From IMG/VR virus record IMGVR_UViG_3300034071_003115, positions 15,110-79,109 of that record: a stretch of DNA of 64,000 bases. One strand, written 5' to 3'. The notes under the pieces were generated by a model that made no database searches, was not told the DNA's origin, and saw nothing but the letters and a program-made list of their open reading frames with translations. Positions 16,038 through 45,963 of this stretch are shown piece after piece. Positions within the stretch are counted from its first letter, which is position 1; the number at the start of each line of letters is the position of its first letter. A program made the translations under genes and the position numbers. The DNA comes from a virus.

Positions 16038-16131
16038 GATCAGACCCCCAATTCTTATGGCCGTCGACAGGCCGATCGGAACCCCTGTTAGACATCGGTG
16101 TCAGCAGATAGTCCCGTATAAGCACCATCGA

Positions 16132-20039: not shown

Positions 20040-20214
20040 CGAGAGCGCTCATATTAAGCCGAAGGAGATGATTGCGTTTGAGGCGGCCAACGCCGCATCC
20101 AACGACCTTGATACGCTAGTTGCATACGATGACATTTTGGCGTATCGTAGGGGCATCTCGATAGCGATGGAGGACTGGGTTGCAAATCCAGTGCTAGAAA
20201 GCAAGGAAGGGTAA
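19972..20214 (+). CDS. Hypothetical protein
   Basis: Coupled to next gene. Confidence 0.55.
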   Translation: MQEMELMLLGRSKFREYLQQSLDESAHIKPKEMIAFEAANAASNDLDTLVAYDDILAYRRGISIAMEDWVANPVLESKEG

Positions 20215-20495
20215 TGAAGCAAACTGGTCCGAATTTTGCGGAGCAGCGCATTATTCAGAGGAAGAAAACTGCTCGGGTGTGGAAACTCCTAGAAGAAACT
20301 GGGATCAAGAGGCGATACATCGCCAAGCATCTTGGTGTATCGTACGGCTACCTAAATCAGGTGCAGTATGGTCAGGCGCCTATCAGTGGCCCGATGCGCA
20401 AGAAGATCTCTGAATTTCTTGGGATTGAAGAAGGAAGACTCTTCGAGGACCTCGATGAGTATTTGAATAAGGAGGAAGCAAATGGCATTCGATAA
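20214..20495 (+). CDS. XRE-family HTH regulator
   Basis: IAKHLGVSYGYLNQVQYG HTH. Confidence 0.75.
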   Translation: MKQTGPNFAEQRIIQRKKTARVWKLLEETGIKRRYIAKHLGVSYGYLNQVQYGQAPISGPMRKKISEFLGIEEGRLFEDLDEYLNKEEANGIR

Positions 20496-23823: not shown

Positions 23824-24201
23824 ATGGCAAAGGAAAGGATTGAAGTAACTGGCAGGCTTGGAAGCAAGCCAGAACTTCGCAGCACCAAGACAGGAAAGAA
23901 CGTTTCATCGTTTAGCGTTGCAGTGAAGAACAAGCGCGGCGGCGAAGAGACCACCAATTGGTACGACGTATCCATTTGGGAGAAGCAGGCAGAACTTGCT
24001 GTACAGCTGCTCGACAAGGGTGATCTTGTGTGCGTTGAAGGCGTTCCGTCCGTGAAGACTTTTCAGACCCGCAGCGGCGAGTCCAAGTCTTCCATTCAGA
24101 TCACGGCGCGCACATTTGATCTTCTTGCCAAGGGCAAGGGTGCCGCTGGCGCAGTCAAGCAGGCCGCGCCTGAAGAAGACTTTTCCGAGGTTCCGTTCTG
24201 A
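23824..24201 (+). CDS. ssb: Single-stranded DNA-binding protein
   Basis: GRLGSKPELR OB fold, acidic tail DFSEVPF. Confidence 0.9.
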   Translation: MAKERIEVTGRLGSKPELRSTKTGKNVSSFSVAVKNKRGGEETTNWYDVSIWEKQAELAVQLLDKGDLVCVEGVPSVKTFQTRSGESKSSIQITARTFDLLAKGKGAAGAVKQAAPEEDFSEVPF

Positions 24202-28760: not shown

Positions 28761-29003
28761 GCATTTCCGGGGCTTCTGGAAGGCCCTCCGCAAGCGATTA
28801 TAGAACCGCCAACCCCTCGTCTGTAAAAAAATCCGCCGCGTCCCTAGTCGCACGGTGGGGGAGGGGGGTCGAGGACGCATTCTGGGGGTTGGGAGCATCC
28901 TCCGGATGCTACACGCCCCCAAAGAAAGCACGATCAAGACCATAGGCGATGATGGGGTCAGCGGTGGCGTTGCCGCCGCGGTGGTAGTTAGGAGGTACGC
29001 ACA

Positions 29004-29387
29004 ATGTACGCAATGCTCTTGCTTCTTTCGCCGATGGCGGCGGCGGCTCTTTCTTTCGTTCTCCGCGGTGATGCGGTGCTCTCGGTTCTCTTCGGTTTCG
29101 CGGCTCTCGGCGTTGTATCGTTCGCGGGTTTCGTTTACGAGTTCGGTGATCTCGCAATGGAGCACCGCTACGCGAAGAACCCACGCGAGGCAGACGGCGA
29201 GGTGGTCGCGTTCGGTCTGGTGTGCGCGGTGTCTGGAATCGCTGGCACGGCGATCTCGTGGCTCCTGGGTGCGGGCGATGCGATGTCGCTCCTTCTGGGT
29301 GTGGCGAGCGTGGGCGCGGCGTGGCTCGCAATCTTCGCGGTGGTCGTTGCCGATGAGAAGATGCGCCGCCGCTACGGCAAGCGATAG
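29004..29387 (+). CDS. Membrane protein (array A cargo)
   Basis: AGGAGG RBS, four hydrophobic segments, terminator hairpin after. Confidence 0.7.
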   Translation: MYAMLLLLSPMAAAALSFVLRGDAVLSVLFGFAALGVVSFAGFVYEFGDLAMEHRYAKNPREADGEVVAFGLVCAVSGIAGTAISWLLGAGDAMSLLLGVASVGAAWLAIFAVVVADEKMRRRYGKR

Positions 29388-29651
29388 CACACACACGAAA
29401 CGCAACCGCCCCCGTCCTCCGCGAGCGCGCGGAGGGCGGGGGCTTCTTTGTACCTATGTGACTTCGGTGGCGGTCGCGCCCCCTGGGGCTGCTGTTCTAT
29501 ATGTAACTCACAGTATGAATATAAATAACAAATAACATAATAAGTTCGATGGACTCGCCTCCGGCGAGTACAGACCGAGTATGAAAACGCTATTGTATGA
29601 GTGCGCGATGATGAGGGCGAGCCACCGAAGGCTCGGAAGGGAGACAATGGT

Positions 29652-29936
29652 ATGACTTGGCATCGACCTGATGAAGGCTGCGACGTCACCGTACGCGGTG
29701 ATGCTGATGACGTCATCACGATCACTTGCGTGAATACGGAAGGCGTGATGAGTCCGAAGCCGCACCGCTATCACGTCACGCTAAGCGCGAATGCGAACGC
29801 GCTGATGGTGATGGAAGCGGATGGCTACGGCGGCATCCACTACTTCAGTGACGCTGAAGCGAAGCGGGTGCTGATGGAAGACGAAGTCTGGTACGAACTA
29901 CCAGCATTCTTCCGCAATAGAATCGTCTGGCAATAG
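29652..29936 (+). CDS. Hypothetical protein (array A)
   Basis: AAGGGAG RBS, MTWHRP start. Confidence 0.65.
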   Translation: MTWHRPDEGCDVTVRGDADDVITITCVNTEGVMSPKPHRYHVTLSANANALMVMEADGYGGIHYFSDAEAKRVLMEDEVWYELPAFFRNRIVWQ

Positions 29937-29997
29937 CGTGATGGTGATGCGCGGCGAATGCGACGCCGCGCATCACTTCACTGAAGGGAGAATCACA

Positions 29998-30318
29998 ATG
30001 GTGAAGCACGTGAACCCGATCGAATGGAAGTTCGTGTATGAGCATCGCTCGACGCTGACGGAGCGCGAGAATCGCACTAGGATGGAAGCAGAATCCGATC
30101 GTGTATCGGATAGGATCGTGAAGGCTATCGAAGCGATTCGGAAGGATCGTCCATCGTCGTGGATCGACGAACTCGATACCCGCGCATTCTTCATTCTGAA
30201 GGACGCGCTCGATCCGATCGGATACGAAGTGTTGCGTCAGGATGAGGACGGCGCGTGGATCGTACGCGAACGATGGAATACTGGAACGGACTGGAACGCA
30301 CGACTGGTCATCGTCTGA
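29998..30318 (+). CDS. Hypothetical protein (array A)
   Basis: AAGGGAG RBS, MVKHVN start, GC hairpin after stop. Confidence 0.65.
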   Translation: MVKHVNPIEWKFVYEHRSTLTERENRTRMEAESDRVSDRIVKAIEAIRKDRPSSWIDELDTRAFFILKDALDPIGYEVLRQDEDGAWIVRERWNTGTDWNARLVIV

Positions 30319-30574
30319 TCGGCCTCCCCCCGTTCACCGCAGGCGCGGTGGGCGGGGGGAAGTTCTTTCGCAACCCCCCGGGTGCTGCTGTTCTATCTCT
30401 AACTGGCTGACTATAAGTAAATAACATAACAACATAAGTTCGACAGGCTCGCCTCCGGCGAGTACGACGCCGCTAAAAGAACGCGAATCAACATCTAGGA
30501 GATGATGGAGCAGCCGCGGACGCGCGGTGTGATGAATGCGACATCACAATGGTCTAGCAGAAAGGTGGCTTGGA

Positions 30575-30886
30575 ATGATCAAGACAATCGGCGAAGCGAT
30601 CGAAGCGCTTCGCAAGGTGGTAGCAGAAGCGCAAGACATCTTCGCGGAAACGGAGAATCTTGTCGCGAAAGCAGAAGCGATTCTTTCGCTCGCAACGATC
30701 ACGGGAAGCGCTGGTGATGCGATCAAGGCAAGCGAGAATGTTGGCGCTAGTAGAATGGCGTACCTTCGCGCTCGTCTCGAATTGGAGAAGCAGCGATTCT
30801 ACCTTTCGCAATTGGAGAAGGTAGCAGCCGAGAAGGGTAACGACTGGGAAGGCAACAAGGGAATCCAAATCCAGTCGATTCAGTAA
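30575..30886 (+). CDS. Coiled-coil hypothetical protein (array A)
   Basis: AAAGGTGG RBS, hairpin after stop. Confidence 0.65.
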   Translation: MIKTIGEAIEALRKVVAEAQDIFAETENLVAKAEAILSLATITGSAGDAIKASENVGASRMAYLRARLELEKQRFYLSQLEKVAAEKGNDWEGNKGIQIQSIQ

Positions 30887-31121
30887 GGACTTCCCCCTCA
30901 CCGCGGACGCGCGGTGAGGGGGATGGTTCTGTCGCGGCCCCCCGTGCTGCTGTTAGATGTGTAACCCACAAGAGATATATAAGTAACAATATATAAGTAA
31001 TAAGTTCGATAGACACGCCTCCGGCGCGTACTAGCTGAGAAGAAATACCGCGCCGTATCAATAGGGGATGATGTGCCTAGCCCCGATAGCAAGGGCGCTG
31101 CAGCAATAGGGGGATACGCAA

Positions 31122-31352
31122 ATGGGCAAGCGGATCAACCGCAAGCAAGCGATAGACCGCATCAAGGAGCGTCTACCGTTTGTTTCGCACACGGGAAATT
31201 TCCGCGGCGAATTGATCGGTACGCAATACATGGTGTATTCGTACCGCGTATGCATCGCGGATTTTACCAATGGCGCGTGGAGCATTGACCCCACGCGATG
31301 GAGCGCGACAACATCGCGCCATCAAGGCATCGTGCGCCGCGCGATCGCCTAA
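31122..31352 (+). CDS. Hypothetical protein (array A)
   Basis: AGGGGG RBS, SATTSRHQ motif. Confidence 0.65.
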   Translation: MGKRINRKQAIDRIKERLPFVSHTGNFRGELIGTQYMVYSYRVCIADFTNGAWSIDPTRWSATTSRHQGIVRRAIA

Positions 31353-31625
31353 CGGATCGGCCCGCGTATAAAGGCGGGCGAGGCAAGGGAGCAGGGGGAC
31401 GAGAGAGCCCCCTGCTCGCTCCTTTATTTTTTTCTCTTTTTTTATCCAGAGCCAAGGTGGCGGTCACACTCTCTTGTGGAATATAAGTAACTAAATATAA
31501 GTAATAAGTTCCACGGCCTCGCCTCCGGCGAGTACGACACCAGAAAAAGAATCTCTCCGTATGACTCGGCGATGATGGTGTCAGCGGCGCTGCTGTGGCG
31601 TCGCATCAGTACGGGAGGGAACGGT

Positions 31626-31967
31626 ATGGAATCGCTATTGGCACTGATCGCCACGCTAGGCGGCGTGACGGTACGCGCGCGCGGAATGCGCGCAGTGAAT
31701 CCTGCACGCGGGTACGCAGTAGGGTCGACTGATCGCACTGCGATCCTGCTGCCGCTCGACACCACGGAACGCGCACTACGCACTGCACTATTGGAATGCG
31801 CAGTGCAGTACGGTACGCGTCACGCAGGCGCGTGGGTCGAGGATGGGATGATTCACGTTGACCCCACCACGATCATCAGCAGCAGGCGCGCTGCGCTAGG
31901 CACTGCGAAGGCGAATCGTCAGCGTGCGATCTACGGATTCAAGGAACGCGAAACGATCTACGTCTAG
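31626..31967 (+). CDS. Hypothetical protein (array A)
   Basis: GGAGG RBS; GAW..DG..HVD...N.Q.AIY pattern. Confidence 0.65.
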   Translation: MESLLALIATLGGVTVRARGMRAVNPARGYAVGSTDRTAILLPLDTTERALRTALLECAVQYGTRHAGAWVEDGMIHVDPTTIISSRRAALGTAKANRQRAIYGFKERETIYV

Positions 31968-32224
31968 CAGGCATCCCCCCAGCCGCAAGGTCCCGCGGCT
32001 GGGGGGATTGCTCTATCGCGGCCCCCTCCATCCTGCTGTTAGATGTGTAATCTCCATGTGCAATATAAGTAACATAATTCATATCACGTTCGATGGGCCC
32101 GCCTCCGGCGGACACAGGTCGAGAAAAAGAATCTCGATGTACATCCGTGCGATGCTGGTGGTACCGCCGACGGGTGGGGCGAGCAATGCGAGCTCGCAAT
32201 TGGTTAGTGAACAGGAGGTTCAAC

Positions 32225-32497
32225 ATGCCAAAGGAGTTGAGGTCATTCATGATCCTCGTCTCAAAGGTCGTTGAGGGCGAGATCGCCGTCATCGCAGAGA
32301 CCGAGGAGAAGGCACGCGAGATCGCAATGGATCTTGCGTCGAATCACCCAGACACTTACCTCGACAACGATACGGATGTCGTTGTCGACTCAGTCCGCAG
32401 CGCCAGCGATCACGATCTCGAGTATCTGATCTTCAACGGCGCCAACGGATCTGAGTGGGACGCAAAGAGGCTGATCAAGATGTCCTTCGAGAAGTAG
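32225..32497 (+). CDS. Small acidic protein, DpnD/PcfM-like pattern (array A)
   Basis: AGGAGG RBS; V.AETEEKAREIA motif. Confidence 0.6.
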   Translation: MPKELRSFMILVSKVVEGEIAVIAETEEKAREIAMDLASNHPDTYLDNDTDVVVDSVRSASDHDLEYLIFNGANGSEWDAKRLIKMSFEK

Positions 32498-32774
32498 TAC
32501 CGAGAACCCCAGTCGGCAGCGGACGCGCTGCTGGCTGGGGTTTCTTTTTGCCCTGCACAAAGCTCTACCTCGGCCCCCTGGGGCCTGTAGTTCTATATCT
32601 AACACACAATATGAATATAAATAAGAGCAATAAGTTCCATGGCCACGCCTCCGGCGTGTACGACCTCGGCCTAAAAATCTCAATCAACAGAAACGCGATG
32701 ATGGGGTCAGCGGACGCGGTGCGGCATGAGCCGTTGCGACACCGAAGTGCGCGGTAGCAAAAAGGAGGACAGAG

Positions 32775-33176
32775 ATGTCCGAGAAGGAACGCTCGCAACA
32801 GCGCGCAAACCTCTTCGCTGAAGTCGTCAGTGAAGTCGTGAATCCAGTCGTGGCTCAAGAGGAGCGCACGCACGAATGGGAGTTCATCGCCAGAGACGCT
32901 GACGATGACTACGATGATGTTGCGTGGTCGTTGCACAATGGTTCACGAGAAATCATTGAGCAGTACGCAGCAACAAAGAGCACTGGCGCGGATGCGATGT
33001 ACGTCCTTGAGAAGCCTCACAAGTTTCTTGATGGCGTTGCGGAGTTCATTGAGAACATGGACGTCGCAACTTCAGAGAAGGAGTACATGACTCGCAAGTT
33101 TGGTTATTGGCATTGTATGGAGTGCGACGCTGAAGCGTACTCTATTGAGAGCGGCGACGAGGAACCCTGCGAGTAG
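32775..33176 (+). CDS. Acidic protein with C-terminal W.CxxCDA motif (array A)
   Basis: AAGGAGG RBS; resembles 33825-34184. Confidence 0.7.
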   Translation: MSEKERSQQRANLFAEVVSEVVNPVVAQEERTHEWEFIARDADDDYDDVAWSLHNGSREIIEQYAATKSTGADAMYVLEKPHKFLDGVAEFIENMDVATSEKEYMTRKFGYWHCMECDAEAYSIESGDEEPCE

Positions 33177-33254
33177 GAATCTCGTCGCAGTTCAATCAAA
33201 CGAGGTGCGAGCGAATGCGACGCTCGCACCTCACCATCAGTGAAGGAGAGAATC

Positions 33255-33563
33255 ATGTTCAAGTCAGACGGAAAGAAGATCAAACTCAACGCGTTCGGAA
33301 CGGATTACACGGCGGAGATTCTTGTTGATCAGTATCACAACGGCAACACTGCCGTTGTGTTGTACACAGAGCACGAGCCACTGTGCTCTCTCTCTGTGAA
33401 CACTGAGAAGATTCTTCCAACGGGTCACTTCTACTTGAAGGAGTGGTCAGAGAATCTTGAGATCGCTCACAATCAGAGCGTTCAGGAGATCATCAAGGAG
33501 TGTGGTCAGCATGAGGACTACGCTTCTGGATACGTCGTGGCACGCTGCTTCACGATCTCCTAA
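33255..33563 (+). CDS. DUF4313-like protein (array A)
   Basis: Y.NGN.A..L....EP...LSVN...KEWSEN pattern; AAGGAG RBS. Confidence 0.55.
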   Translation: MFKSDGKKIKLNAFGTDYTAEILVDQYHNGNTAVVLYTEHEPLCSLSVNTEKILPTGHFYLKEWSENLEIAHNQSVQEIIKECGQHEDYASGYVVARCFTIS

Positions 33564-33824
33564 AGTCTAGCCCCCCTTCCACCCAGCGCGGTGGGAGGGG
33601 GGTTAGTTATACCGCGGCACCCTGTGCTGCTGTTAGATCTCTAACCCCCTCACAATGTAAATAAATAAATAAGAGGAATAAGTTCCACGGGCGCGCCTCC
33701 GGCGCGTACGGCCCGAGAAAAAAAATCTCACGGAGTAGAAGCCTGATGATGGGTGCAGCGGCGGCACTACGGCGAAGGAGCCGATGTGATGGTGAAGCGT
33801 CGCAGGTAGCATTGGAGGTTCACG

Positions 33825-34184
33825 ATGAGTGCAATGAAGCGCATTGCAATCGCATTGGAGCGTGGTGCTCAACTCACCACGCACGATTGGAAGTTTGTTG
33901 AGAATCGCAGCAACTCGCTGCAAGCGCGTGTCGCATACGCGCAACTTCTCAACGAGTATGTTGTCGAGTTTGCGCGAACGCTCGACACCGCCGACCACGC
34001 GGTCGACGCAATCGAATCGCCGCACGATTACGCGGGAGAGATTGCCGCGTGGTTGTCGGAGAATCGCGACGAGCACGACGAGGAGATTGCTGCTCTCGGT
34101 CGATGGGAGTGCGCGGATTGCGACGCGGTTGCAACGCGTATGGACATCTACATCGACGAAGCAGAAACCTGCATCGTTGAGTGA
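33825..34184 (+). CDS. Acidic protein with W.CxxCDA motif (array A)
   Basis: TGGAGG RBS; resembles 32775-33176. Confidence 0.7.
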   Translation: MSAMKRIAIALERGAQLTTHDWKFVENRSNSLQARVAYAQLLNEYVVEFARTLDTADHAVDAIESPHDYAGEIAAWLSENRDEHDEEIAALGRWECADCDAVATRMDIYIDEAETCIVE

Positions 34185-35290: not shown

Positions 35291-35511
35291 CGGAGTCCTC
35301 CCCCCGTTCACCGCAAGCGCGGTGGGCGGGGGGAGGCTCTAACGCAGCCCCCTGGGTGCTGCTGTTAGATGTCTAACACACAAGCGATAAGTAAATAACA
35401 TAAATAATATAAACGGGGAATAATATAAGTTCCAACATTACGGGCCGCGGCCCGTAATGCCCCCACAAATGTTATGCCCCCGCAAGTCCCAGACCTGCGG
35501 GGGCTAGTTAG

Positions 35512-35721
35512 TTAGCGGCGGTCCCAGAGGTACTGCGAGCCGTCCCAATCATCCTCGTACATCATCGCGTCCTTGTCGCCAAGCAGCGCAGCAGCCTCGG
35601 CGCGAAGTTCATCGCGGAACTCCTTACCGCAATAGTCGTGGTACCAGACTCCGCTGAACTCGTCCGTCCACTTGCCATCCTCGCTCGTGATTGTTTCGCT
35701 GCACCAATCGCACCTGAACAT
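35512..35721 (-). CDS. Small acidic Zn-binding protein (array B)
   Basis: AAGGAGG RBS; CxxC..HxxC. Confidence 0.7.
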   Translation of the reverse strand: MFRCDWCSETITSEDGKWTDEFSGVWYHDYCGKEFRDELRAEAAALLGDKDAMMYEDDWDGSQYLWDRR

Positions 35722-35900
35722 TTCTGCCTCCTTATTGCTACCACCCCAAGCGGGGTACCCCCATCATAGAGTCGCCATTTCCAATCCGTCAAGCCCCTAG
35801 TTTCGGGAGAGTCTCGTGCGCCGCGGCGCACGAGAGCCGAACAAAAGAAAACGCCAGCGGGGGTAGCATCCCGCTGGCGTGTTGCTAACGATTGTGCGCG

Positions 35901-36185
35901 CTATCCGCGATAGTAGTCCATCTTGTCAATGAACTCATCATCAACATTGACCGAGTTGTATGAAACCGAGAATCCCTTCTTCTCCATCGCCGCGATGAAG
36001 AGAGGCGCATCGCAATCTTCTTCTAGGTAGACGCTACCATTGCGCTCATACGAGCAGTTGCTCACCTTGTCCGCGATACCAAGCGTGCGAAGCATTGCCT
36101 TCTCCGCTACGAGGTATCCGTGCCCTGGCGTGGATACGAACCGCGTCACATAGGTTGCTTGGATACCGAAGTCCCCTCCAAACAT
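35901..36185 (-). CDS. Hypothetical protein with TPGHG...YLEEDCD motif (array B)
   Basis: AAGGAGG RBS before MFGGDF. Confidence 0.7.
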   Translation of the reverse strand: MFGGDFGIQATYVTRFVSTPGHGYLVAEKAMLRTLGIADKVSNCSYERNGSVYLEEDCDAPLFIAAMEKKGFSVSYNSVNVDDEFIDKMDYYRG

Positions 36186-36319
36186 TATTGCCTCCTTATT
36201 GCTACCCTCACGGCAACTGCCGCAAGGCAATACTACGCGAACTCCCGCTTGCTTGTCAAGCGTTCTATTCCACCCTGCCGCGGCAGGGTGGAGCCGACCC
36301 TAATACCTGCCGCTTTCGT

Positions 36320-36649
36320 TTACGCTTCCGCGTTCGCCGTCTGCTCCTGCTCGTTGCGAATCGCTTCGTCCGTGTGATGGCTCGCGATTTCCGTCCAGTT
36401 CACCGACGAGAGGCAACCGCCCACGAAGTCCGCAACTAGTCCCGCGGGCTGCTCGCCGATGAACTCCTCAACCTGCTCGCGAATCCATCGCCCCATCTCA
36501 TAGGCGGAGAAGTTTGGGTCGCTGTCGTTCGTTTCTGCAAAGTAGCGCGCCTGCTCACCAACCTCAAAGAGGTCAAGCAGCCCCTCCTCAATCCAAAGAT
36601 TGGTGACCCAAGTTTCCCAGTTCGTCCAGCCATTGTAGCCTTCGCTCAT
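36320..36649 (-). CDS. Acidic phage protein with YNGWTNWETW motif (array B)
   Basis: AAGGAGG RBS before MSEGYNG. Confidence 0.75.
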   Translation of the reverse strand: MSEGYNGWTNWETWVTNLWIEEGLLDLFEVGEQARYFAETNDSDPNFSAYEMGRWIREQVEEFIGEQPAGLVADFVGGCLSSVNWTEIASHHTDEAIRNEQEQTANAEA

Positions 36650-36816
36650 TTTTGCCTCCTTGCTACCTAGCGGGAAGTCCCCGCCACTGAATACTAAGCG
36701 AACTCCTAGCCGCTCGTCAAGTGTTCTATTCCAACCTGCCGCGGCAGGTTGGAGCTCCACAAAGAAACAACGGCGGGGATTTCTCCCCGCCGTTGTCGTT
36801 CCCGATTTTGTGCGCG

Positions 36817-37224
36817 CTACTTGATTGGGTAGTTGCCCAGTTCTAGCAGCGTCTTGATTTCCGCAGCCTGTTCATCGGTGAGGGCGAGAGTCTTGCCGTC
36901 CTCGTCCTCTGCGGTGAGTACGCAGTTGCCATAGATGTTGTCCGCGTACCCTCCCAGGATTTCGTTGCGGAGTGATGTCGCCGCATGATTGCGGAGGACT
37001 GGCTCGTTGTAGAGACCTTCCTCGTCGCACCAGAGCACGACGCTAGTTGCGCCATACTTGCCAGAAACCGCAACCTCCGTCATGTCCCACTCGCCTACTC
37101 GGTAGAGTTCGGTGAGCGTGTTGCCGTCATCGTTGAAGTCCACGACCTCAACCCAGTTGAACAGCGCGGGCGTTGAAGCACCAACTTCAAGCGCACCGAC
37201 TCCGAACTTGATTGCCTTACCCAT
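36817..37224 (-). CDS. DUF3846-like protein (array B)
   Basis: WCDEEG...N..AT...IYGNCVL pattern. Confidence 0.65.
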   Translation of the reverse strand: MGKAIKFGVGALEVGASTPALFNWVEVVDFNDDGNTLTELYRVGEWDMTEVAVSGKYGATSVVLWCDEEGLYNEPVLRNHAATSLRNEILGGYADNIYGNCVLTAEDEDGKTLALTDEQAAEIKTLLELGNYPIK

Positions 37225-37336
37225 TTTCCGCCTCCTTGCTACTCATCGGGAAGCCCCGACACCAGAATCTTACGCGATAAGTTCCAGACCTGTCAAGGGT
37301 TCAAATCCAAGTCGCCGCGGCGACTTGGAGCCGAAC

Positions 37337-37578
37337 AAAATGATGAGGGTCTGACTGGCACCACACCAACCAGACCCTCATCGGCATTTCGCTGCCTTTG
37401 ACGCTTATCCTCTTGCGAGGAGAGGCTTCACCTCTCGGCTACCTCTTGCGAACGGCATAGGTGTCGGTTAGGCACCCCCACCGCTCGTCCTTATCGTCTC
37501 GGGTAGTTCGTCTACAACTACCAACCAGCCGCAGCCCCATAAGCCCGCCACCTTCACAGCGGCACCAGAGCGGCTCGT
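37337..37578 (-). ncRNA. Putative structured ncRNA 1 (~240 nt)
   Basis: Own TTGACG-N17-TAGAAT promoter and terminator, no SD-led ORF, several hairpins including one with a GCAA tetraloop. Confidence 0.6.
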
Positions 37579-37698
37579 GAGGTGATTCTAAACGAACATC
37601 TTCCAGCCGTCAAGAGTTCTAATCACACGGGCCGCGGCCCGTGTGAGGTGAACAAAAAAGGCGAGGTTTCCCTCGCCTTTCTTGACCAGACCCCCCGA

Positions 37699-37980
37699 TT
37701 ACTTGACTTCGTAGACCTCGCCGCCAAAGCGAACCGCCGTGATTGCGTCAAGCGCAACCGAACGATACGCCTTCTTGGTGATGTCGTAGACGAAGATGAG
37801 GTCTTTCGCCGCCGCGTCATACGCAGCCTCACCGCCTTTGAGATGCTTCTTGACTCCGAGTCGCGCCGTCATCTTGCGAACCTCGCCCGTCGTGCGCTTC
37901 ACGAAGTCCACGCCGAAGATTGCGCCGTTGCTGTTGCGAATCATTTCGGCTGCCTCTGCCAACTTGATTGCCTTGCTCAT
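37699..37980 (-). CDS. SH3-fold / WYL-like (DUF2693-like) protein (array B)
   Basis: V.FVKRTTGEVRKM...VYD....YRSV.LD.I. Confidence 0.65.
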   Translation of the reverse strand: MSKAIKLAEAAEMIRNSNGAIFGVDFVKRTTGEVRKMTARLGVKKHLKGGEAAYDAAAKDLIFVYDITKKAYRSVALDAITAVRFGGEVYEVK

Positions 37981-38128
37981 TTCTGCCTCCTTGCTACTCT
38001 GCCCCAATCGGGGTACTCCGATTCTAAGCGAACACCTAGCCAGCCGTCAAGGGTTCTATTCCAAGTGGCCGCCGCCACTTGGAGCCGAACAAAAATGCCG
38101 CCCGAAGGCGGCATCTTTGCTTTCTGGA

Positions 38129-38467
38129 CTACTCGGCTTGGTGGAGCGCGATGATCTGAGCCATCTCGCGCTCGGCTGCCCACTCCTCTGAGAAGGCAAC
38201 GAAGTCAATGAATCCATCGTTGCGCCAATGGACGACGATGTTGCCGAACCTGTCGTAAGTCCCATCAAGTTCAGTTGAGATCATCTCATCTGGCTGAGCG
38301 AAACCTTCCAACATATCGCCGTAGATTTCAGCGAACTTTAGATCGTATCCGTCAAGACGAGGAGCGACCTTTGGATCAACGAACCAATCGCCCCTGCAAC
38401 TGCCCTGTGAGCATTGAAACTTTGTGAAGTCGCCCTTTGTGAGTGAGACTGCCAGAGCCTTGAACAT
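38129..38467 (-). CDS. Hypothetical protein (array B)
   Basis: GAGGAGG RBS before MFKALA. Confidence 0.7.
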   Translation of the reverse strand: MFKALAVSLTKGDFTKFQCSQGSCRGDWFVDPKVAPRLDGYDLKFAEIYGDMLEGFAQPDEMISTELDGTYDRFGNIVVHWRNDGFIDFVAFSEEWAAEREMAQIIALHQAE

Positions 38468-38577
38468 TTGAGCCTCCTCTGCTACCGCCCCAAGTGGGGT
38501 GAACCCATTGTAATCAAACTTCTCGCAAGGTGTCAAGAGGTTCTAGTGGAACAGGCCGCCGCCTGTTCCACCTGAAC

Positions 38578-38805
38578 AAAATACAAGACCCTCGGAGCCG
38601 TCGCCCCGAGGGTCTTGCTTCGGATTTGTTGTCTAGGGACTAATCACTTTCCCTAGACTCCTTTTCCTTCCGCTCCGCCGATCCATTGGCACCTAGCGGT
38701 CATCGTCCTTTGCGTCTCTATACCCGCATTTTTTGGCTGCGGCATCTGCTCGCTCGTCCAGAGTCTCACCTAGTCGGTGTCGCTTCATCTAGAATCGCTT
38801 CCGAC
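38578..38805 (-). ncRNA. Putative structured ncRNA 2 (~230 nt)
   Basis: Own TTGACA-N18-GAGAAT promoter and terminator; only a 31-codon ORF without clear SD; shares a motif with ncRNA 1. Confidence 0.5.
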
Positions 38806-38898
38806 AAGTGGATTCTCCCACACCCGAAACAGACCTGTCAAGCCCCTATTTCAGTTCCATTCCAATCACCCGCCGGTGATTGGAGCCGAACTATTTAT

Positions 38899-39240
38899 TT
38901 AGTTTGCTGGTGCTTCTGAGGAAGCGATTGCGTCGCTCAACGAGTAGAAGACAGGGTGTTCGTATCCGTTGCCTAGTTCTGATTTGTGAATCAACTCAAA
39001 CCACGAGTTATTTATCCACTCAAATCGCTCAATGTCTTTCTCCGCCTCTGCGAGTTTCTCGTCGGAGTCTATGCCGACATCTTCCAAGTCCCTCGTCGTG
39101 CGAAGATGGACAAACTGCCCATCATCTCGCTTGTACCTAATGTTCATCTCGCCACACCTGAACACCAGATAGTCGCCGAGGTCTTTGATCGCCTCGTCGT
39201 CTTCGTGATAGGTGTAGAAGGCTGCGTCTTCCCTGCTCAT
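38899..39240 (-). CDS. Acidic hypothetical protein (array B)
   Basis: Start overlaps upstream stop. Confidence 0.65.
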   Translation of the reverse strand: MSREDAAFYTYHEDDEAIKDLGDYLVFRCGEMNIRYKRDDGQFVHLRTTRDLEDVGIDSDEKLAEAEKDIERFEWINNSWFELIHKSELGNGYEHPVFYSLSDAIASSEAPAN

Positions 39241-39461
39241 ACACAACCCAGAACGGAGAATCCGTCTGCCGCGATTCCTTCCAGAATCGGTTCGGCATAG
39301 CGTGGCTCAACGACAAGAGCCTGACCCCAATAGGTCGCCTCCGAGTCCACCCTATCGCGCAGCCACGAGCGAGCCTCTGCTGTGAGTGGGGTGATGAGGG
39401 TAATCGTTCCCTCGCTTACGAACGAGAAGTCCGCGAAGTCGGACTTATCTCCCTTTCCCAT
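39237..39461 (-). CDS. Hypothetical protein (array B)
   Basis: GAGGAGG RBS. Confidence 0.7.
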   Translation of the reverse strand: MGKGDKSDFADFSFVSEGTITLITPLTAEARSWLRDRVDSEATYWGQALVVEPRYAEPILEGIAADGFSVLGCV

Positions 39462-39653
39462 TTCTTGCCTCCTCTTTCTGCGGCACTACTTCGCCGCAAG
39501 ACAAGGGTACAACAGCGACCACTAGGTCGTCAAGAGGTTCTAGTCAAACGGGCCGCGGCCCGTTTGAGGCGAACAAAAAAGAGGGATCAAGTTGGCTGCG
39601 ATCAACTTGATCCCTCTGTTGGGGCGTAGGGGAGGCTCTATCCTACGCCGTAG

Positions 39654-39920
39654 TCATAGTGCCGCGGCTTGTGGCTTGCGGCAGTCGTATCCTAGCAGGC
39701 AACTGAACGGCTCGTGATCAACGGGATCAATCGCCCACTCAAGGCAAGTCCCACAAGATTCACCGCACCAGTTTACTTCGTCCCAGTCAAAGACAGGGTG
39801 AAGATTATTGCCCTCGTTATCCTTCGTGTCTTCGCTGTCAAGCGTATCGCCGAAGCGTGCCTTCGCGCAGGCTAGGCAATGAACGGAAGCGTCAAACTGC
39901 CAAGCGATCGGTGTTGACAT
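39654..39920 (-). CDS. Cys-rich acidic protein (array B)
   Basis: AAGGAGG RBS; two CxxC. Confidence 0.7.
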   Translation of the reverse strand: MSTPIAWQFDASVHCLACAKARFGDTLDSEDTKDNEGNNLHPVFDWDEVNWCGESCGTCLEWAIDPVDHEPFSCLLGYDCRKPQAAAL

Positions 39921-40041
39921 ACATTCCTCCTTATTCGCAGCGTCGGTACTTCCGACAATCGGATTGTCCCATACCTCGGGCTGTCCGTCAAATGTTCCAG
40001 CCCAAGCACCCGCGGGTGCTTGGGGGCGAACTATTTATTGC

Positions 40042-40275
40042 TCAATACACGCCAGTCCCGCCGCAGCCGCACGCTCCGTCTTGGCACATCACGCCCTCGT
40101 CAAGCAACATTGCGCAGCCGTACTTATCTGATCGGTGCTCCTCGCACTTCACGCAGTATCGGGAGGGCAGCCCAGAGGAGTTGTTGTCCGCCCAATACGC
40201 AAACGGCTCCTCACAGAAATCACAGGATACTACTCCCTGCGGTTCGCCGACTGGAATCTCAAAGTGGTCGCTCAT
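40042..40275 (-). CDS. Cys-rich small protein (array B)
   Basis: Coupled to upstream gene. Confidence 0.6.
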   Translation of the reverse strand: MSDHFEIPVGEPQGVVSCDFCEEPFAYWADNNSSGLPSRYCVKCEEHRSDKYGCAMLLDEGVMCQDGACGCGGTGVY

Positions 40276-40517
40276 TACAGCGCACCATAGCAGTCATCGC
40301 AGAGATTACGAACTTCATCATAGGCGTATTCTGCGCCGTTCCAGCCATAGGAGAACTTTCGCCCCTTGCCCTCAAATGGGCAACGCTTATCAAGTCGCAG
40401 CACTTCCTCGCCCTCGCACTCCTGAACGAGCGGGTGGTCGTGCGTTTCACACTCGCATTGGTCGTAGTAGCAATCTCCGTTGCCACACATCGTCATTGAG
40501 CCTTGTAGGTACGCCAT
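40275..40517 (-). CDS. Cys-rich acidic small protein (array B)
   Basis: AAGGAGG RBS. Confidence 0.65.
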   Translation of the reverse strand: MAYLQGSMTMCGNGDCYYDQCECETHDHPLVQECEGEEVLRLDKRCPFEGKGRKFSYGWNGAEYAYDEVRNLCDDCYGAL

Positions 40518-40636
40518 TGTTGCCTCCTTGCTCGCAGCACCCCAAGCGGGGTAGCCCTATTGTAAATCCACTTGCTTCTATCCGTCAAGAGGTTCTATCC
40601 CAGATGGCCGCGGCCATCTGGGGGAGAACTATTTAT

Positions 40637-40837
40637 TTACTTCCAGTCGCTTGGGATTTCACGCCAAGTCAATCCCCCGTTATCGCAGTCTGCCGAGTAG
40701 ATGTCGCACTCTTGACACCACACCACATAGCAGTCCTCTAAATGCTTGTCGCAGTCAGACCAAAGCCAATGCTCTTCCCGCCTATCCATCGGGCAGTCGC
40801 AGGGCTTTCGTTTAGATGTGGGGAATAGGCGGCTCAC
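40637..40837 (-). CDS. Cys-rich small protein (array B)
   Basis: GTG start overlapping upstream stop. Confidence 0.55.
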   Translation of the reverse strand: MSRLFPTSKRKPCDCPMDRREEHWLWSDCDKHLEDCYVVWCQECDIYSADCDNGGLTWREIPSDWK

Positions 40838-41283
40838 AATACCTCACACCCTTTCAGGTCAGCGCACTTCTCCAAGAACGCCTGCCACTCTCGGATAAGA
40901 CCAACCCACGAAGTCGCCTCCTCGCTTGGGAACGCCTTCGTGTGGTCGTCCATAAACGGATTGTTTGCGATTATGGCAATCATTTCGTTTTTGATTTGCT
41001 CATCGCTCATAGACGCGATTTTCTCGGAGAGTGCGCGGCACTCATAGTCCTTGATGACCTCGCCGCTATTATCAAGTAGATTCTCGTTCACCTCGTCAAA
41101 GCCAATCGCATCGTGGAACTCACGCAACATCGGCATACCCCAGATGTTCAGACGGAAGTAGAGCGTATCGGGAGCCTTCTCGTCATACGAGCCGTCCTCG
41201 TTTACCCACATTGAGCGGTGCTTCTTTGCGTGTTCAGCCGCAGCCTTTCGGTCTGGTAGCAGCGAGTAGATGTCGTATCCCAT
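40834..41283 (-). CDS. Hypothetical protein (array B)
   Basis: AAGGAGG RBS; MGYD...YFRLNIWG.P motif. Confidence 0.7.
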   Translation of the reverse strand: MGYDIYSLLPDRKAAAEHAKKHRSMWVNEDGSYDEKAPDTLYFRLNIWGMPMLREFHDAIGFDEVNENLLDNSGEVIKDYECRALSEKIASMSDEQIKNEMIAIIANNPFMDDHTKAFPSEEATSWVGLIREWQAFLEKCADLKGCEVL

Positions 41284-41434
41284 TTCCAGCCTCCTTTATT
41301 ACAAACCCCAAGCGGGGCAACACCATTGTAAGCAGATTTGCCGTCAGCCGTCAAGGGGTTCTAACCCAAATGGCCGCGGCCATTTGGGGCTGAACAAAAA
41401 ACAAGCCCCCCGAAGGGGGCTTGTTTTTCTTGGG

Positions 41435-41512
41435 CTACTTTCTTACTTCGCTAACGATTGCGTATGTAAACGAAGCGAGCAGAAGAAGAAAGCCCCAAAA
41501 CAACTCAATCAT
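41435..41512 (-). CDS. 25-aa hydrophobic peptide
   Basis: MIELFWGFLLLLASFTYAIVSEVRK*, ATGA-coupled to DUF932 stop, terminator follows. Confidence 0.45.
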   Translation of the reverse strand: MIELFWGFLLLLASFTYAIVSEVRK

Positions 41513-42474
41513 CGGGAAAGCGCGAGGACTGCCTCGCGCTTTGTCTTCGCTGCGAAACCTGTGTCTAGCATTACGCTAGAAGCACGAGCGTCCGAAGCAG
41601 AAGAGCGTACCCCGCCGCGATACGAAACGCCATAGTCCAGATACTCGGCGATGGCGTTGTATACGCCCCACTTCGTATCGCGCAAACCTTCTAGATTCTC
41701 CGCGTTATTGAGAATCGCGATTGTTGCCTTCGCTCGCTCCGACATTACTTCCTTCCCACGCTTCTCCGACTCCGACAGCGGGAAGATTCTCGTGATGACG
41801 CGGAATGCCTCATCGCGATCCATCTTCTCCGCGATCATACGCGAGCCGATGACCGAAAACTCCTCAACCGCGCTTGCGGCAAGTCCGAGTGCGCGCTTCG
41901 CCTCTGCGACTTTCTCCTCAATCTTCGCGGTGTGGCGAAGTGTGAACGACATCTTCGCGCTGCCCAACGCTGCGTTGAGCGTGTTCATACAAACAACGCG
42001 GATTGGCGTAATCATCGCTTTGAGTGGGAACAAGCCGTTGTGCCCATTGGCAATCACAAGGTAGGTGTTGGTATCACCATTGTCGCCCTTGATCTTGATC
42101 CTCTCTGGAATCTCCAACGCGGAGAAGACGATCTGCCCACCTTTGAGTGAACCCGCCGACTCGTAGCGTGCGCCCTCGTCAAGCAACGCGTCCGCGAACG
42201 ACATCATCTCGTCGTTCTGGATTGGCGTGTAGCGATCACCGACAACGCCCAAGACCGAGCCATCGGTGCTGCGAACATTTGCGCGCTTGCCGTTGATCGC
42301 GATTTGCTTGCCGTCAAGCGTCGTGAAGATCGGCTGCTGCTTTACTGCCCAATCAAGACCAGCCGCAACGATCATCTCCGCGCTCGTTGTGAGTCCATTA
42401 TTGGCAACGCCGAGTTTGTGCCACGGCGCGCCCCTTTCCGCGTTGTATGCCATCGTTTCTACTTCGTGTGCCAT
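41509..42474 (-). CDS. DUF932 family protein
   Basis: MAHEVE...PWH.LG...AGLDW.V, LGVVG.RY.PIQN, TPIRVVCMNTL, T.WG.YNA. Confidence 0.85.
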   Translation of the reverse strand: MAHEVETMAYNAERGAPWHKLGVANNGLTTSAEMIVAAGLDWAVKQQPIFTTLDGKQIAINGKRANVRSTDGSVLGVVGDRYTPIQNDEMMSFADALLDEGARYESAGSLKGGQIVFSALEIPERIKIKGDNGDTNTYLVIANGHNGLFPLKAMITPIRVVCMNTLNAALGSAKMSFTLRHTAKIEEKVAEAKRALGLAASAVEEFSVIGSRMIAEKMDRDEAFRVITRIFPLSESEKRGKEVMSERAKATIAILNNAENLEGLRDTKWGVYNAIAEYLDYGVSYRGGVRSSASDARASSVMLDTGFAAKTKREAVLALSR

Positions 42475-42592
42475 TTGCGTCCTCCTTTTTTCTCAACGGC
42501 AACTGCCGCTAGATGGATTGTCGCATACTTCCCGAGATTGCGTCAAGTTCTAGTCCAAAGGGCCGCGGCCCTTTGGAGCCGAACTATTATCT

Positions 42593-42877
42593 TTATGCGT
42601 GTCGGTGCGCTTCTACAAAGTCGCAGTTCGGGATAAAGCACCAGCCTTCATCTCGCGCTTCCGCGTCCGACATAAATGGCGGGTGAAACTCACACTCGCA
42701 GGGAGCGCAGTCCAAGCAGTAAACCAGATAACCCTCTGGCACACCGCTCTCATACTGATCAAAGTCAAGAACATCAAAGCGCGTGTTTGGCTCGCCGTTC
42801 CACGCACCGATGACTTTCTCATCGGGGTAAACAAGCGGAGCCGAGCAGCGAGTACACGCGTGAAGTTCACCGCTCAT
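42593..42877 (-). CDS. Cys-rich protein (array B)
   Basis: GGAGGAG RBS before MSGELHAC. Confidence 0.6.
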   Translation of the reverse strand: MSGELHACTRCSAPLVYPDEKVIGAWNGEPNTRFDVLDFDQYESGVPEGYLVYCLDCAPCECEFHPPFMSDAEARDEGWCFIPNCDFVEAHRHA

Positions 42878-43043
42878 CGGTAATCTCCTCCGCGCTCCAA
42901 ACAATAATCTCTGGCGTAGTGTCCCAAGGTGCTGGCTCCTCTGCCAACTCAAACGCCTTGCCCTCTGCCTCGCCCTGATCCAAGGCTTCCACCTCAAACT
43001 CGCGATAGCCAGTGTGTTGTAGAACAACGATCCACTTACTCAT
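42867..43043 (-). CDS. Small acidic DpnD/PcfM-like protein (array B)
   Basis: EVEALDQGEAEGKA motif; GGAGG RBS. Confidence 0.55.
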   Translation of the reverse strand: MSKWIVVLQHTGYREFEVEALDQGEAEGKAFELAEEPAPWDTTPEIIVWSAEEITDER

Positions 43044-43353
43044 TGTCGCCCTCCCACTCTGCGCCCTGCTCAATCAAGGAGAAGAATCCATCGTTCGGAT
43101 TCTTGTCTGGGTGTACGCTCGCAACCGCCTGAACGAATCGCAGCGAGCAAGAGTTCTCGTACCACTCCATAATCGTACTCAACATTTCGTTAGGGTTGGA
43201 ATCTTTTGCCTCAATGAGCGTCGTGTAGCCATACTCCTTCATCTGCTCCACCTGCGCGTCGTCAAGCAGAACATAGATTTTGTGGCAATCGTCAAAGCCG
43301 ATACCCTTTGCGATTTCCACCATCTCCTCAACCTTGTCCCAACTTACTGCCAT
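43036..43353 (-). CDS. Acidic hypothetical protein (array B)
   Basis: GAGGAGG RBS; FDDCHKIY...SCSLRF. Confidence 0.7.
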   Translation of the reverse strand: MAVSWDKVEEMVEIAKGIGFDDCHKIYVLLDDAQVEQMKEYGYTTLIEAKDSNPNEMLSTIMEWYENSCSLRFVQAVASVHPDKNPNDGFFSLIEQGAEWEGDNE

Positions 43354-43515
43354 TTCAGCCTCCTCACTACAACGGCAAGTGCCGTCTAGTGGATTGTCGC
43401 ATACCCAAAGCCCAGCCGTCAAGCGTTCTACCCCAAGGAGCCGCCGCTCCTTGGGCAAGAACAAAAACAAACGAGCCGCCCGAAGGCGGCCCGCTTGATT
43501 ACTTGATCTCGAAGA

Positions 43516-44061
43516 TCAGACTGGCTGATTCTCTGGCAGCGCAGCCTCTTCCTTCGTAATCTTTCCCGCTCGGATTGCGTCGCGCAGTTCGATGCTCTCT
43601 TTGTGTGTGATCGCATCGAGATCAGGGTTGTGCTTCTCTGCGTATTTCAGTTCTTTCAGACCCTCATGCTCCATGCGCTCCATAACGCGCTTGCGCCAAG
43701 CACCAGCGGTTTCGTATGAGGCGTTGGTTTCCAGTCCGATGTGCTGCTCCAAGTCTGCTCTGGTAATCATGCGCGGTTCCCACTTGATGTTTCCGTCGTC
43801 TTCATACCCAGAAAACACAACACTCTTGTCGATCCATGCGACCGAGTAAGCGAGCGCCATGCGCTTCTCCCACTCGTCAAGATTCTCTGGCGTGATCTCG
43901 TTGAGCCCAATGCTCATCGTGTGCCAGATAATCGAGTTGGTGATCGGATGAAGGTACTCCTCACCGCGAGTCGTGCCGTCATGGGCGCTGCTCCTTGTTG
44001 CCGTTCGGTAGCAAACATCGTCCGCGTTCTTTACATTTTTTACTGACCAGTTGAGCGGCAT
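43516..44061 (-). CDS. Hypothetical protein (array B)
   Basis: AAGGAGG RBS. Confidence 0.7.
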   Translation of the reverse strand: MPLNWSVKNVKNADDVCYRTATRSSAHDGTTRGEEYLHPITNSIIWHTMSIGLNEITPENLDEWEKRMALAYSVAWIDKSVVFSGYEDDGNIKWEPRMITRADLEQHIGLETNASYETAGAWRKRVMERMEHEGLKELKYAEKHNPDLDAITHKESIELRDAIRAGKITKEEAALPENQPV

Positions 44062-44070
44062 ACAGCCTCC

Positions 44071-44298
44071 TTACTTCTTCTTGGTGGCGCGCTTTGCGCC
44101 AGACTCACGAATCGCACGCTCCAATCGCTCGGTGCGCTTATCAGCGTGATGGCTGCTGATGACGAAGAACGCCCAGATCGTTGCTGGCAGCCAGCCGATC
44201 AGCGTGAGTTGGAGAACAAGCGCGATGATTGCCTGAACCCATTTGCCAGCAGCCAGAAACCCAAACGCTGGAAAGAGCAACGCCAATAGGTACTTCAT
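44071..44298 (-). CDS. YqaE/Pmp3-like small membrane protein
   Basis: Y.LA..FP.......GK..QA.I.L.LQ.T.IGW.PA..WA. Confidence 0.75.
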   Translation of the reverse strand: MKYLLALLFPAFGFLAAGKWVQAIIALVLQLTLIGWLPATIWAFFVISSHHADKRTERLERAIRESGAKRATKKK

Positions 44299-44492
44299 TT
44301 TCTACCTCCTTACTTTCTATCGGGAATCCCCGACCACTTGATTTTCTCACGGGTCATAGCGACCTGTCAAATGGTCTACCCCAGACACCGGCGGGTGTCT
44401 GGGCGCGAACAATAATAAATAAGCCCCGCCATTTCTGGCGAGGCTTATTCACACTCGGGCTAACGCTGTGATTTCATCAGCCCTGTATCTAA

Positions 44493-45305
44493 TCAGCCCC
44501 CGACAACGCCGCCGAAGTGTTTATCACAGAACTTCTCAAACTCGTTCATTGGTACGGCATCATAATCACGCTCGCCGTACTCAATCTCGTCGTCCTCGCC
44601 CTTGTGCCACGCTTCGTCTGGCAAATCATCTGCGTTGTAATCACTTACGCTTACAACCTCTCCGTTCTCGTACACAATCTCACCTGCGAAACCCATACCG
44701 CCTTCGCAGTATCGGTGAGCGATTGCGAGCGTTGGAAACTGCTTGGCGAGCGCGGCAATCACAGGCTCCGCAGGAGCCCAAGCCGTATCAAAGTTGTACG
44801 AAACGATTCCGTCAATCTTGCTATCGTCATCGCCGCGGTCGCTCCATACTTCACCGCAGTTCCACTTGGAGCCCCAGTTAGAAACATTCCAGTTGTACCA
44901 CCAGTCTGGGTGCGATGAGTTCTGCTTGACCTTGTGAATCGGACAGATTGGCGTACCGCCAAACATCAGGGCGGTATCATCTTGGATTGTGCCGTTGCTT
45001 GATTCTTCCTTCACAACTGGAATACCATCAACGCACCACTCGCCCTGCTTTCGCATTACATCTTTGCCGTCGTTATCGGTGTACGAAACGATTTCTGGTA
45101 GGTCATCTCGCTCAACCCACACCTGCTTACAGCCGCATTGGAAATCGTTCTGACCCTCGTTGATTGCGTAGAACTTGCTATCGGGTGGCGGCACAATCTT
45201 CGCAAAGTCGAAGTCGCCCTCGCTGCCCTTCACAAACTCAACCAACCTTGCGACCTCTGCTTCGTCGCCGCTAATGTCTACTTGGTTCACACACCAGTTA
45301 GGCAT
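44493..45305 (-). CDS. DUF1281 / YubB ferredoxin-like protein
   Basis: MPNWC.N, WY.W...NWGSKWN, FDTAWAP, Y.EGG..FAG. Confidence 0.75.
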   Translation of the reverse strand: MPNWCVNQVDISGDEAEVARLVEFVKGSEGDFDFAKIVPPPDSKFYAINEGQNDFQCGCKQVWVERDDLPEIVSYTDNDGKDVMRKQGEWCVDGIPVVKEESSNGTIQDDTALMFGGTPICPIHKVKQNSSHPDWWYNWNVSNWGSKWNCGEVWSDRGDDDSKIDGIVSYNFDTAWAPAEPVIAALAKQFPTLAIAHRYCEGGMGFAGEIVYENGEVVSVSDYNADDLPDEAWHKGEDDEIEYGERDYDAVPMNEFEKFCDKHFGGVVGG

Positions 45306-45447
45306 CTTTCTTTCCTCCTTGTATCACAGACAGGGAAGCCCCTGCCCCTAGATTGTAAGGCAACTTCTAGCCATCGGTCAAGTTGCCAGCCAGAGTTCTA
45401 TCTCAACTGGCGGCGGCCAGTTGAGGGCGAACTAAAATTTTGCGTTT

Positions 45448-45780: not shown

Positions 45781-45963
45781 AACTTCCTCCTTATGCCTAC
45801 GGCTAACTGCCGTAGGGGGATTGTAAGCGATCGCTATAACTTGTGTCAAGCCCTCGGGTTCGACCCTCGCTTCTGCGGAAGCTCGGCTACCCCAAAAAAA
45901 ACATCTTGTCAAGTCCTCCCCCAAAACGACCCCCGAATAATAACTGAACTTCGGTAGGCCAAC

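Follow-up and report, generated by a model that had tools for sequence, protein, structure and literature searches.

The 64,000-nucleotide stretch of DNA analysed here (the window) comprises bases 15110-79109 of the IMG/VR virus record IMGVR_UViG_3300034071_003115, which is 79,109 bp long and rated 94% complete. The phage is siphovirus-like, with a 2794-amino-acid (aa) tape measure open reading frame (ORF), a 1667-aa tail fibre, a portal, a major head protein and a large terminase. Its DNA is present repeatedly across lake-water metagenomes, and comparison with databases found no cultured phage close to it. Two converging arrays of small-gene cassettes lie in the window. The class A array carries on the + strand, between 28894 and 33706, eight hairpins with the loop C-TCC-G on the coding strand, that is C-GGA-G on the template strand, and each of them heads a cassette, while the class B array on the - strand has a palindrome at the head of each cassette. 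We consider with moderate confidence that the class A hairpin is a DNA structure extrudable by supercoiling, which would serve as the upstream element of activator-dependent promoters of the host RNA polymerase (RNAP).

With the middle C of TCC counted as 0, a stem formed by positions -8 or -7 to -2 with +2 to +7 or +8 is followed by TAC at +8 to +10, an A-rich tract around +17 to +26, GATGAT at +46 to +51, a G-rich segment at +52 to +55 and a pyrimidine-purine step at +57/+58, and the hairpin is flanked by the conserved tetranucleotides GTTC on its 5' side and TAnC on its 3' side. The initial annotation had listed eight such hairpins with GATGAT or GATGCT exactly 46 nt downstream, and a pattern scan reproduces all eight: CTCCG-N43-GATGMT matches ten times in the window against 1.09 expected, eight of the matches being on the + strand within 28900-33750, and GCCTCCGGC matches seven times against 0.66 expected, every time inside the class A array. 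The stems quoted in that annotation are correct as well, with the qualification that those of units 4 and 6 are interrupted by an A.C and a C.A mismatch, respectively (Table 1). The 46-nt distance between the loop centre and the initial G of GATGAT holds in 8/8 units of the window and in 23/23 distinct units of its lineage, a sample assembled from the window, six IMG/VR contigs retrieved via a neighbouring gene and a few metagenome contigs.

Related phages carry the same layout with different stems. In the sub-lineage of L133 the stems read GGCCCC, GACGCC, GGCACC, GGCTCC and TGCACCC, with the loop, the TAC and the 46-nt distance being the same. Two complete relatives bounded by direct terminal repeats (DTRs), G001 and G002, are syntenic with the window phage (G000) at about 65-80% DNA identity, and their class A arrays occupy the same genome position, which in a DTR-bounded relative is mid-genome. 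Their stems are of 5 bp (GGCGC, AGCGC, GCCGC, GACGC, GGCCC) around an unchanged TCC loop, and the hairpin is followed by TA(A/T)C, a box CCTAAAYGAATC or CCTGAACTA and then a -10-like hexamer; in 15 of 16 units the C-TCC-G hairpin lies 42 nt before nAyTnT (CATTCT, TACTCT etc.), and no GATGAT is found. A first scan of viral contigs used too loose a pattern and gave chance singletons only, and refined scans found the GATGAT form confined to the window lineage.

Variation among the units preserves the helix. When 20 units were aligned over a helix of seven pairs, 92% of the cells were paired, five of the seven pairs changed on both sides and none of 500 shuffles reached the observed score. In a set of 38 class A units drawn from four related phage lineages, only CTCCG and the C at +10 are invariant, with a purine at +11 in 37 of them (G in 23, A in 14) and T in one, and both of these positions are fixed relative to the loop centre and not to the foot of the stem. 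The next pair outside the closing pair is CG in 23 units and GC in 15 across lineages; within the window lineage the core CCTCCGG is invariant. The interval of 35 nt between hairpin and -10 has diverged to about 50% identity among units with zero indels. The class A layout is a real feature with solid statistical support, and it is conserved.

GATGAT is very probably the -10 element of a promoter, as had been proposed in the initial annotation, and we infer a start about 7 nt later, at loop centre +58. This promoter assignment appears well supported by sequence logic: GATGAT/GATGCT keeps A-11 and T-7 in 23/23 lineage units, the G-rich discriminator follows directly, and the pyrimidine-purine step at the predicted start is present in 19/20 units. 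In addition, when +1 is set at the seventh nucleotide after the -10, the predicted mRNA begins with a stem-loop from nucleotide 1-2 in 7/8 class A, 12/13 class B and 16/16 G001/G002 units, and this stem-loop at the predicted 5' end is probably a stabiliser. Nearly all cassette mRNAs (window 28960-33825 and 35500-45800; L285, L286) combine such a predicted 5' stem-loop with a strong AAGGAGG-type ribosome-binding site after it. Hexamers beginning with G can be taken to function as -10 elements in the host, because class B pairs -10s such as GACAAT, GAGAAT and GAAAAT with a consensus TTGACR; these hexamers, and the head promoter TTGCAA-N17-GATGAT in which GATGAT is paired with a good -35, both exist as earlier quoted.

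The absence of a -35 from class A, likewise pointed out earlier, is borne out by the hexamers at the position concerned (AGAATC, AAAATC, AGAACG, AAAACG, AATACC or AAAGCA): no TTGACA-like -35 was found 16-18 bp upstream of GATGAT, and a sigma-70 consensus scan found no + strand promoter there. An extended -10 (TGn) is present in 2/20 window-lineage units and in most G002 units. Since the -35 is absent and the extended -10 is mostly missing, class A promoters look helper-dependent and alone should be weak. Placing the start near +44, behind a TATAAT/ATAATA -10 and a TACGAC -35, was also considered and rejected, as this can be drawn in the L133 lineage only and is out of register in the window.

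The hairpin has the properties of a structure made in DNA. Units 2-8 are preceded by an upstream module that includes an intrinsic terminator (Table 1); unit 1 lacks this module, as do several units of relatives that retain the hairpin and GATGAT. The hairpin itself has no U-tract, and because it is placed between the upstream terminator and the predicted start it should be mostly untranscribed. In the inner five pairs of the 38 hairpins, 188 of 190 pairs are Watson-Crick, two are A.C and none is G.T. Two A.C events seen on the + strand of class A stems would be G.T on the template, and L192 carries one + strand T.G. Class B palindromes have no G.T in about 220 pairs of the window lineage, and 420/420 pairs are Watson-Crick in L205-L207 (about 640 pairs in total), as compared with 18 G.T in 169 pairs (11%) in the intrinsic terminators within both arrays. 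A structure formed in RNA only would tolerate G.U and a palindrome that has to pair on both strands would not, and hence the absence of G.T argues for structure at the DNA level. We favour on these sequence grounds a DNA-level element, either a cruciform or a template-strand mini-hairpin; a search of Rfam brought no family to threshold. The upstream module also contains a 14-bp near-palindrome, GTTAGATCTCTAAC (GTTnnATnTnTAAC), which could be an operator; the copy at 33632-33645 has counterparts in front of units 2-8 and near 35360.

Table 1. Class A and class B features of the window and further loci discussed in the text (window coordinates).
Feature	Coordinates	Strand	Description
Class A unit 1	28894-28960	+	hairpin AGCATCC-TCC-GGATGCT 28894-28910; GATGAT 28948-28953; predicted +1 28960; without AT-rich upstream module
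Class A unit 2	29553-29619	+	hairpin ACTCGCC-TCC-GGCGAGT; GATGAT 29607-29612; predicted +1 29619
Class A unit 3	30448-30513	+	hairpin CTCGCC-TCC-GGCGAG; GATGAT 30501-30506; predicted +1 30512/30513
Class A unit 4	31013-31079	+	hairpin 31013-31029, CGCC/GGCG as 4 perfect pairs, A.C, 2 pairs; GATGAT 31067-31072; predicted +1 31079
Class A unit 5	31518-31583	+	hairpin CTCGCC-TCC-GGCGAG; GATGAT 31571-31576; predicted +1 31583
Class A unit 6	32099-32163	+	hairpin CCGCC-TCC-GGCGG (5 pairs, C.A, 1 further pair); GATGCT 32151-32156, TGC before; predicted +1 32163
Class A unit 7	32644-32709	+	hairpin CACGCC-TCC-GGCGTG; GATGAT 32697-32702; predicted +1 32709
Class A unit 8	33692-33757	+	hairpin CGCGCC-TCC-GGCGCG; GATGAT 33745-33750; predicted +1 33757
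Upstream module of unit 2	29408-29552	+	intrinsic terminator, box CTGCTGTTnnATnTnTAAC, AT-rich stretch, AATAAGTTC-N5; recurs before units 3-8
Convergence of the two arrays	35297-35460	+	class B-type palindrome 35436-35459 joined at ATAAGTTC to a class A upstream module; lacks a following GATGAT promoter
Class B array	35436-45425	-	17 perfect 24-nt palindromes, frame GTTC-N3...N3-GAAC, each heading a cassette
Candidate head-operon promoter	16131-16159	-	TTGCAA-N17-GATGAT
Phage single-stranded DNA-binding protein (SSB)	23824-24201	+	PF00436, E 1e-24; 125 aa; replication module, adjoins DnaC-like loader

Class B provides a second type of cassette head in the same genome, ordered as palindrome, TTGACR-N17/18-TAnAAT or GAnAAT, 5' stem-loop, AAGGAGG and small gene. 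The arms of its palindromes vary freely among copies and are always Watson-Crick. In the window phage 45.5 +/- 1 nt separate the palindrome centre from the -10, as compared with 46 nt in class A, and three copies are placed about one helical turn further out (10-11 bp more from the -35). An equal hairpin position in the two classes was rejected as a general rule: it is true in the window phage and in G001 and fails in G002, where the hairpin-to--10 distance is 42 nt in class A and 42.5 to 48.5 nt in class B. In L206 and L207 (G002, G003), 15 class B palindromes have the loop TCCG in one orientation to the promoter and never CGGA, while the loops GGCG/CGCC and CTCG/CGAG occur there in both orientations. 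One class B cassette (37337-37616, - strand) has a promoter and a terminator without the usual ORF led by a ribosome-binding site. The cargo of others (- strand, 41509-42474, 44493-45305, 36817-37224 and 36320-36649) includes DUF932, DUF1281_C (Api92-like), DUF3846 and DUF7249 proteins. DUF932 is common in plasmid leading regions, and some of the class B cargo domains give hints of anti-defence or takeover roles.

The loop of class A matches the one at the early promoters of bacteriophage N4, as had been recognised from the template-strand C-GGA-G. The three N4 promoters (NC_008720) read GTTGC-TTC-GCAAC, AAGAAGC-TCC-GCTTCTT and AAGCTGC-TCC-GCAGCTT, and each starts transcription 11 nt past the centre of its loop; the coding pentamer C-TCC-G of P2 and P3 is identical to that of class A, and with G001/G002 the identity extends to the full heptamer GC-TCC-GC. 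Both systems have a stem of 5-7 bp, kept in class A by compensatory changes, a loop of 3 nt and a pyrimidine-purine step 10/11 nt past the loop centre. In N4, a C:G closing pair together with a 5'G and a 3'A among the template loop bases lets a short hairpin extrude at physiological supercoiling (PMC4496689), and these determinants are all present in class A, with C-GGA-G in 38/38 units. Only GNA triloops are reported to form the extra-stable DNA mini-hairpin (PMC13037366), and the class A template loop falls in this class.

The N4 likeness holds for the hairpin and its loop only. The N4 hairpin is centred at -11 from the start, whereas in class A the centre lies near -58 from the predicted start, so that the deviation in spacing noticed at the outset stands, and each class A unit differs from N4 further in being followed by a host-type -10 at an exact distance. 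N4 virion RNAP (vRNAP) contacts a template G at -8 and C at +1, whereas the window lineage, with CC-TCC-GG, has a template C at -8. The three N4 promoters lie at the first-injected end and the eight units of the window phage mid-genome. N4, a member of the Schitoviridae, uses a virion polymerase, whereas the window phage is a siphovirus with a tape measure in which no phage RNAP was found. The check for a virion RNAP or an activator elsewhere in the genome, which the initial annotation had called for, came back negative: T7-type RNAP (PF00940) and sigma regions 2 and 4 gave no match in the window phage genome, ORFs similar to N4 vRNAP, its polymerase domain (mini-vRNAP), gp15 or gp16 were not found in G000 or the complete G002 (all under 7 bits), nor did G002 yield any other phage RNAP or a sigma factor, and no activator of Ogr or MotA type was found. 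A polymerase hidden in the 2794-aa ORF was also considered and rejected, since Pfam, PHROG and language-model neighbours all give a tape measure and both halves look like one, with no PDB sequence match; the giant ORFs are only tape measure and tail fibre, and the additional large ORFs found in G002 encode structural proteins.

The best-supported reading of the hairpin role is that of an upstream structural element which the cassette heads share. In this model the host RNAP would read all eight units, using GATGAT as the -10 and producing an mRNA that opens with a protective 5' stem-loop. The hairpin, of 6-7 bp and about 58 bp upstream of the start, would extrude from negatively supercoiled duplex, as the same loop does at N4, and a reader protein of host or phage origin would recognise the extruded hairpin and then aid the polymerase or time expression to the supercoiling state; both extrusion and this activating partner we infer. 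A reader protein is suggested by the specific, orientation-fixed class A triloop. The initial proposal that the hairpin substitutes for the -35 is too simple, because class B has a palindrome at about the same place plus a consensus -35, and also the class A hairpin spans -50 to -66 and is not at the -35 position. SSB stabilises the template hairpin at the promoters of N4, where the loop centre is at -11 (PMC4496689), and the phage SSB (Table 1) is, speculatively, a candidate hairpin-stabilising factor here. We put forward only tentatively a more specific version, in which the extruded template mini-hairpin C-GGA-G, about 55-58 bp upstream, would be a specificity element recruiting or licensing the host RNAP at promoters lacking a -35 via a structure-reading protein such as SSB, and expression would read out supercoiling after injection.

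Several points weigh against an upstream structural element. Taken singly, the class A hairpins are unremarkable and not exceptional thermodynamically, with DNA folds of -5.8 to -8.9 kcal/mol and z-scores of -0.4 to -2.4, and the evidence is collective; the units are moreover paralogues, and part of their conservation reflects common descent. The start sites of class A are predictions made from sequence. Searches for homologues of Ogr/Delta and MotA found none, and no hairpin-binding or activating protein was identified. The hairpin-to--10 distance differs by 4 bp between lineages, about half a helical turn, and the positional match between class A and class B fails in G002; this 4-bp difference and the looser class B spacing of G002 argue against a rigid protein bridge to the polymerase. 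The invariant C(+10) with a purine at +11, located at the start distance of N4 vRNAP, is left unexplained by the model.

A serious rival, though on balance unlikely, is that the hairpins mark cassette boundaries, as attenuators or insulators resembling the PeSL (promoter-early stem-loop) elements of T4-type phages or as sites of homologous or structure-specific recombination, with no promoter role and with a spacing that results from block copying. T4-type PeSLs are composites of promoter and stem-loop that flank ORFans and mediate shuffling (PMC2839356, PMC4122927). The class A array resembles them as an array of small ORFans, each with a conserved composite of promoter, GC-rich stem-loop and AT-rich region at its flanks, and in both systems relatives gain, lose or recombine cassettes at the motif. 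Thus L129 and L130, although near-identical to the window, differ from it by whole cassettes: unit 6 is missing from L129, and L129:14046 joins the hairpin of unit 4 to the promoter of unit 5, which suggests recombination within cassette heads. Also consistent with boundary marks are the conservation of GTTC and TAnC around the hairpin and the junction at 35297-35460, where GTTC joins a class A module to a class B palindrome and no promoter follows. On the other hand, PeSL stem-loops are RNA terminators that tolerate G-T pairs, vary in position (PMC2839356) and often lie inside the promoter, whereas class A hairpins are purely Watson-Crick and exactly spaced within a lineage, lack a U-tract and, in units 2-8, are already preceded by separate canonical terminators; the -35 is absent from class A. 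Block copying also has to accommodate a 35-nt interval that diverged to about 50% identity without one indel, and a search for an integrase and a Y1 transposase found neither encoded.

Less probable still is a double-stranded operator, in which CCTCCGG and its flanks would be bound by a sequence-specific repressor or a class I-type activator and the hairpin would never form. The invariance of CTCCG, and of CCTCCGG within the window lineage, suits such a protein, as does a site at -50 to -66, the usual place of an upstream activator, and the window contains an ORF with a weak HTH_3 match (20214-20495). The middle promoters of T4 (MotA/AsiA) and the late promoters of P2/P4 (Ogr/Delta) combine a host sigma-70-type -10 and no usable -35 with a conserved upstream element, which in P2 late promoters has dyad symmetry around -55, and class A shares this activator-type layout. 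Such elements are recognised in duplex form, without compensatory covariation, unlike class A, where the variable stem positions stay complementary, five of seven pairs change on both sides and the pair next to the closing pair flips between CG and GC across lineages. A protein that binds duplex needs no such pairing, and the homologues sought, Ogr/Delta and MotA, were not found.

It is very improbable that the units are true N4-type promoters, at which a hairpin-specific polymerase that escaped recognition would start 11 nt past the loop centre, at the purine after C(+10), with GATGAT being part of the leader. The shared C-TCC-G of N4 P2/P3, the GC-TCC-GC heptamer of G001/G002 and the fixation of C(+10) and the purine at +11 relative to the loop centre fit N4 geometry (PMC4496689). 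Against this stand the absence of any N4 polymerase-like ORF or PF00940 match, giant ORFs that encode tape measure and tail fibre only, a template C at -8 where N4 requires G, a template C at +1 in only about 60% of units and an array that is mid-genome; the exact -10 distance and the stem-loop at the predicted +1 would also be left unexplained. Least probable of all, and highly doubtful, is a sense-strand RNA element, produced by read-through or by initiation at a promoter within the AT-rich module and acting on stability, processing or translation, with CCUCC resembling an anti-Shine-Dalgarno sequence: TATAAGT/TATAAAT boxes lie upstream in units 2-8 and CCUCC complements the GGAGG found in the cassettes' ribosome-binding sites, but a promoter in this module was rejected, as the best -35-like hexamers lie at spacers of 19 nt, the consensus scan finds none and the module is missing from unit 1 and some units of relatives, the inner stem has no sense-strand G.U as compared with 11% in terminators, no Rfam family matches, and we know of no special RNA stability of a UCC triloop.

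An upstream structural element of this kind has partial counterparts among known cruciforms. A cruciform at the exsBA promoter of Vibrio parahaemolyticus is attenuated by HlyU (PMC10325908), and the target hairpin/cruciform of diversity-generating retroelements (DGRs) acts as a DNA structure (PMC3240598). As proposed for class A and class B, the inverted repeat lies there near a promoter or target and operates as DNA rather than RNA, but these are single loci with longer arms, as compared with about 25 copies in each genome here, spaced at a set distance from the promoter, those of class A with a mini-hairpin triloop. Class A would be a variant of hairpin promoter elements and of promoter/stem-loop cassettes and not a member of either. 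Elsewhere in the window, two tRNA genes lie on the - strand, Ile (anticodon TAT) at 48221-48296 and Arg (anticodon TCT) at 54589-54664, and two ParB-like proteins (ParB/Srx nuclease domain) are encoded at 50740-51258 (-) and 55998-56666 (+).

To our knowledge, N4 with its giant injected polymerase is essentially the only system in which DNA hairpins are known to serve as promoter elements. If the class A hairpin is functional, transcription control would have made use of an extruded mini-hairpin a second time and independently, and early or middle phage genes would have a simple switch that senses supercoiling; if the reading by host RNAP proves true, hairpin-dependent transcription would not be confined to N4-like phages with a virion polymerase. 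Together, the class A hairpins and the about 17 class B palindromes make up a modular head for the cassettes of about 25 function-unknown genes per genome, and metagenomes can be searched for such arrays by means of this head.

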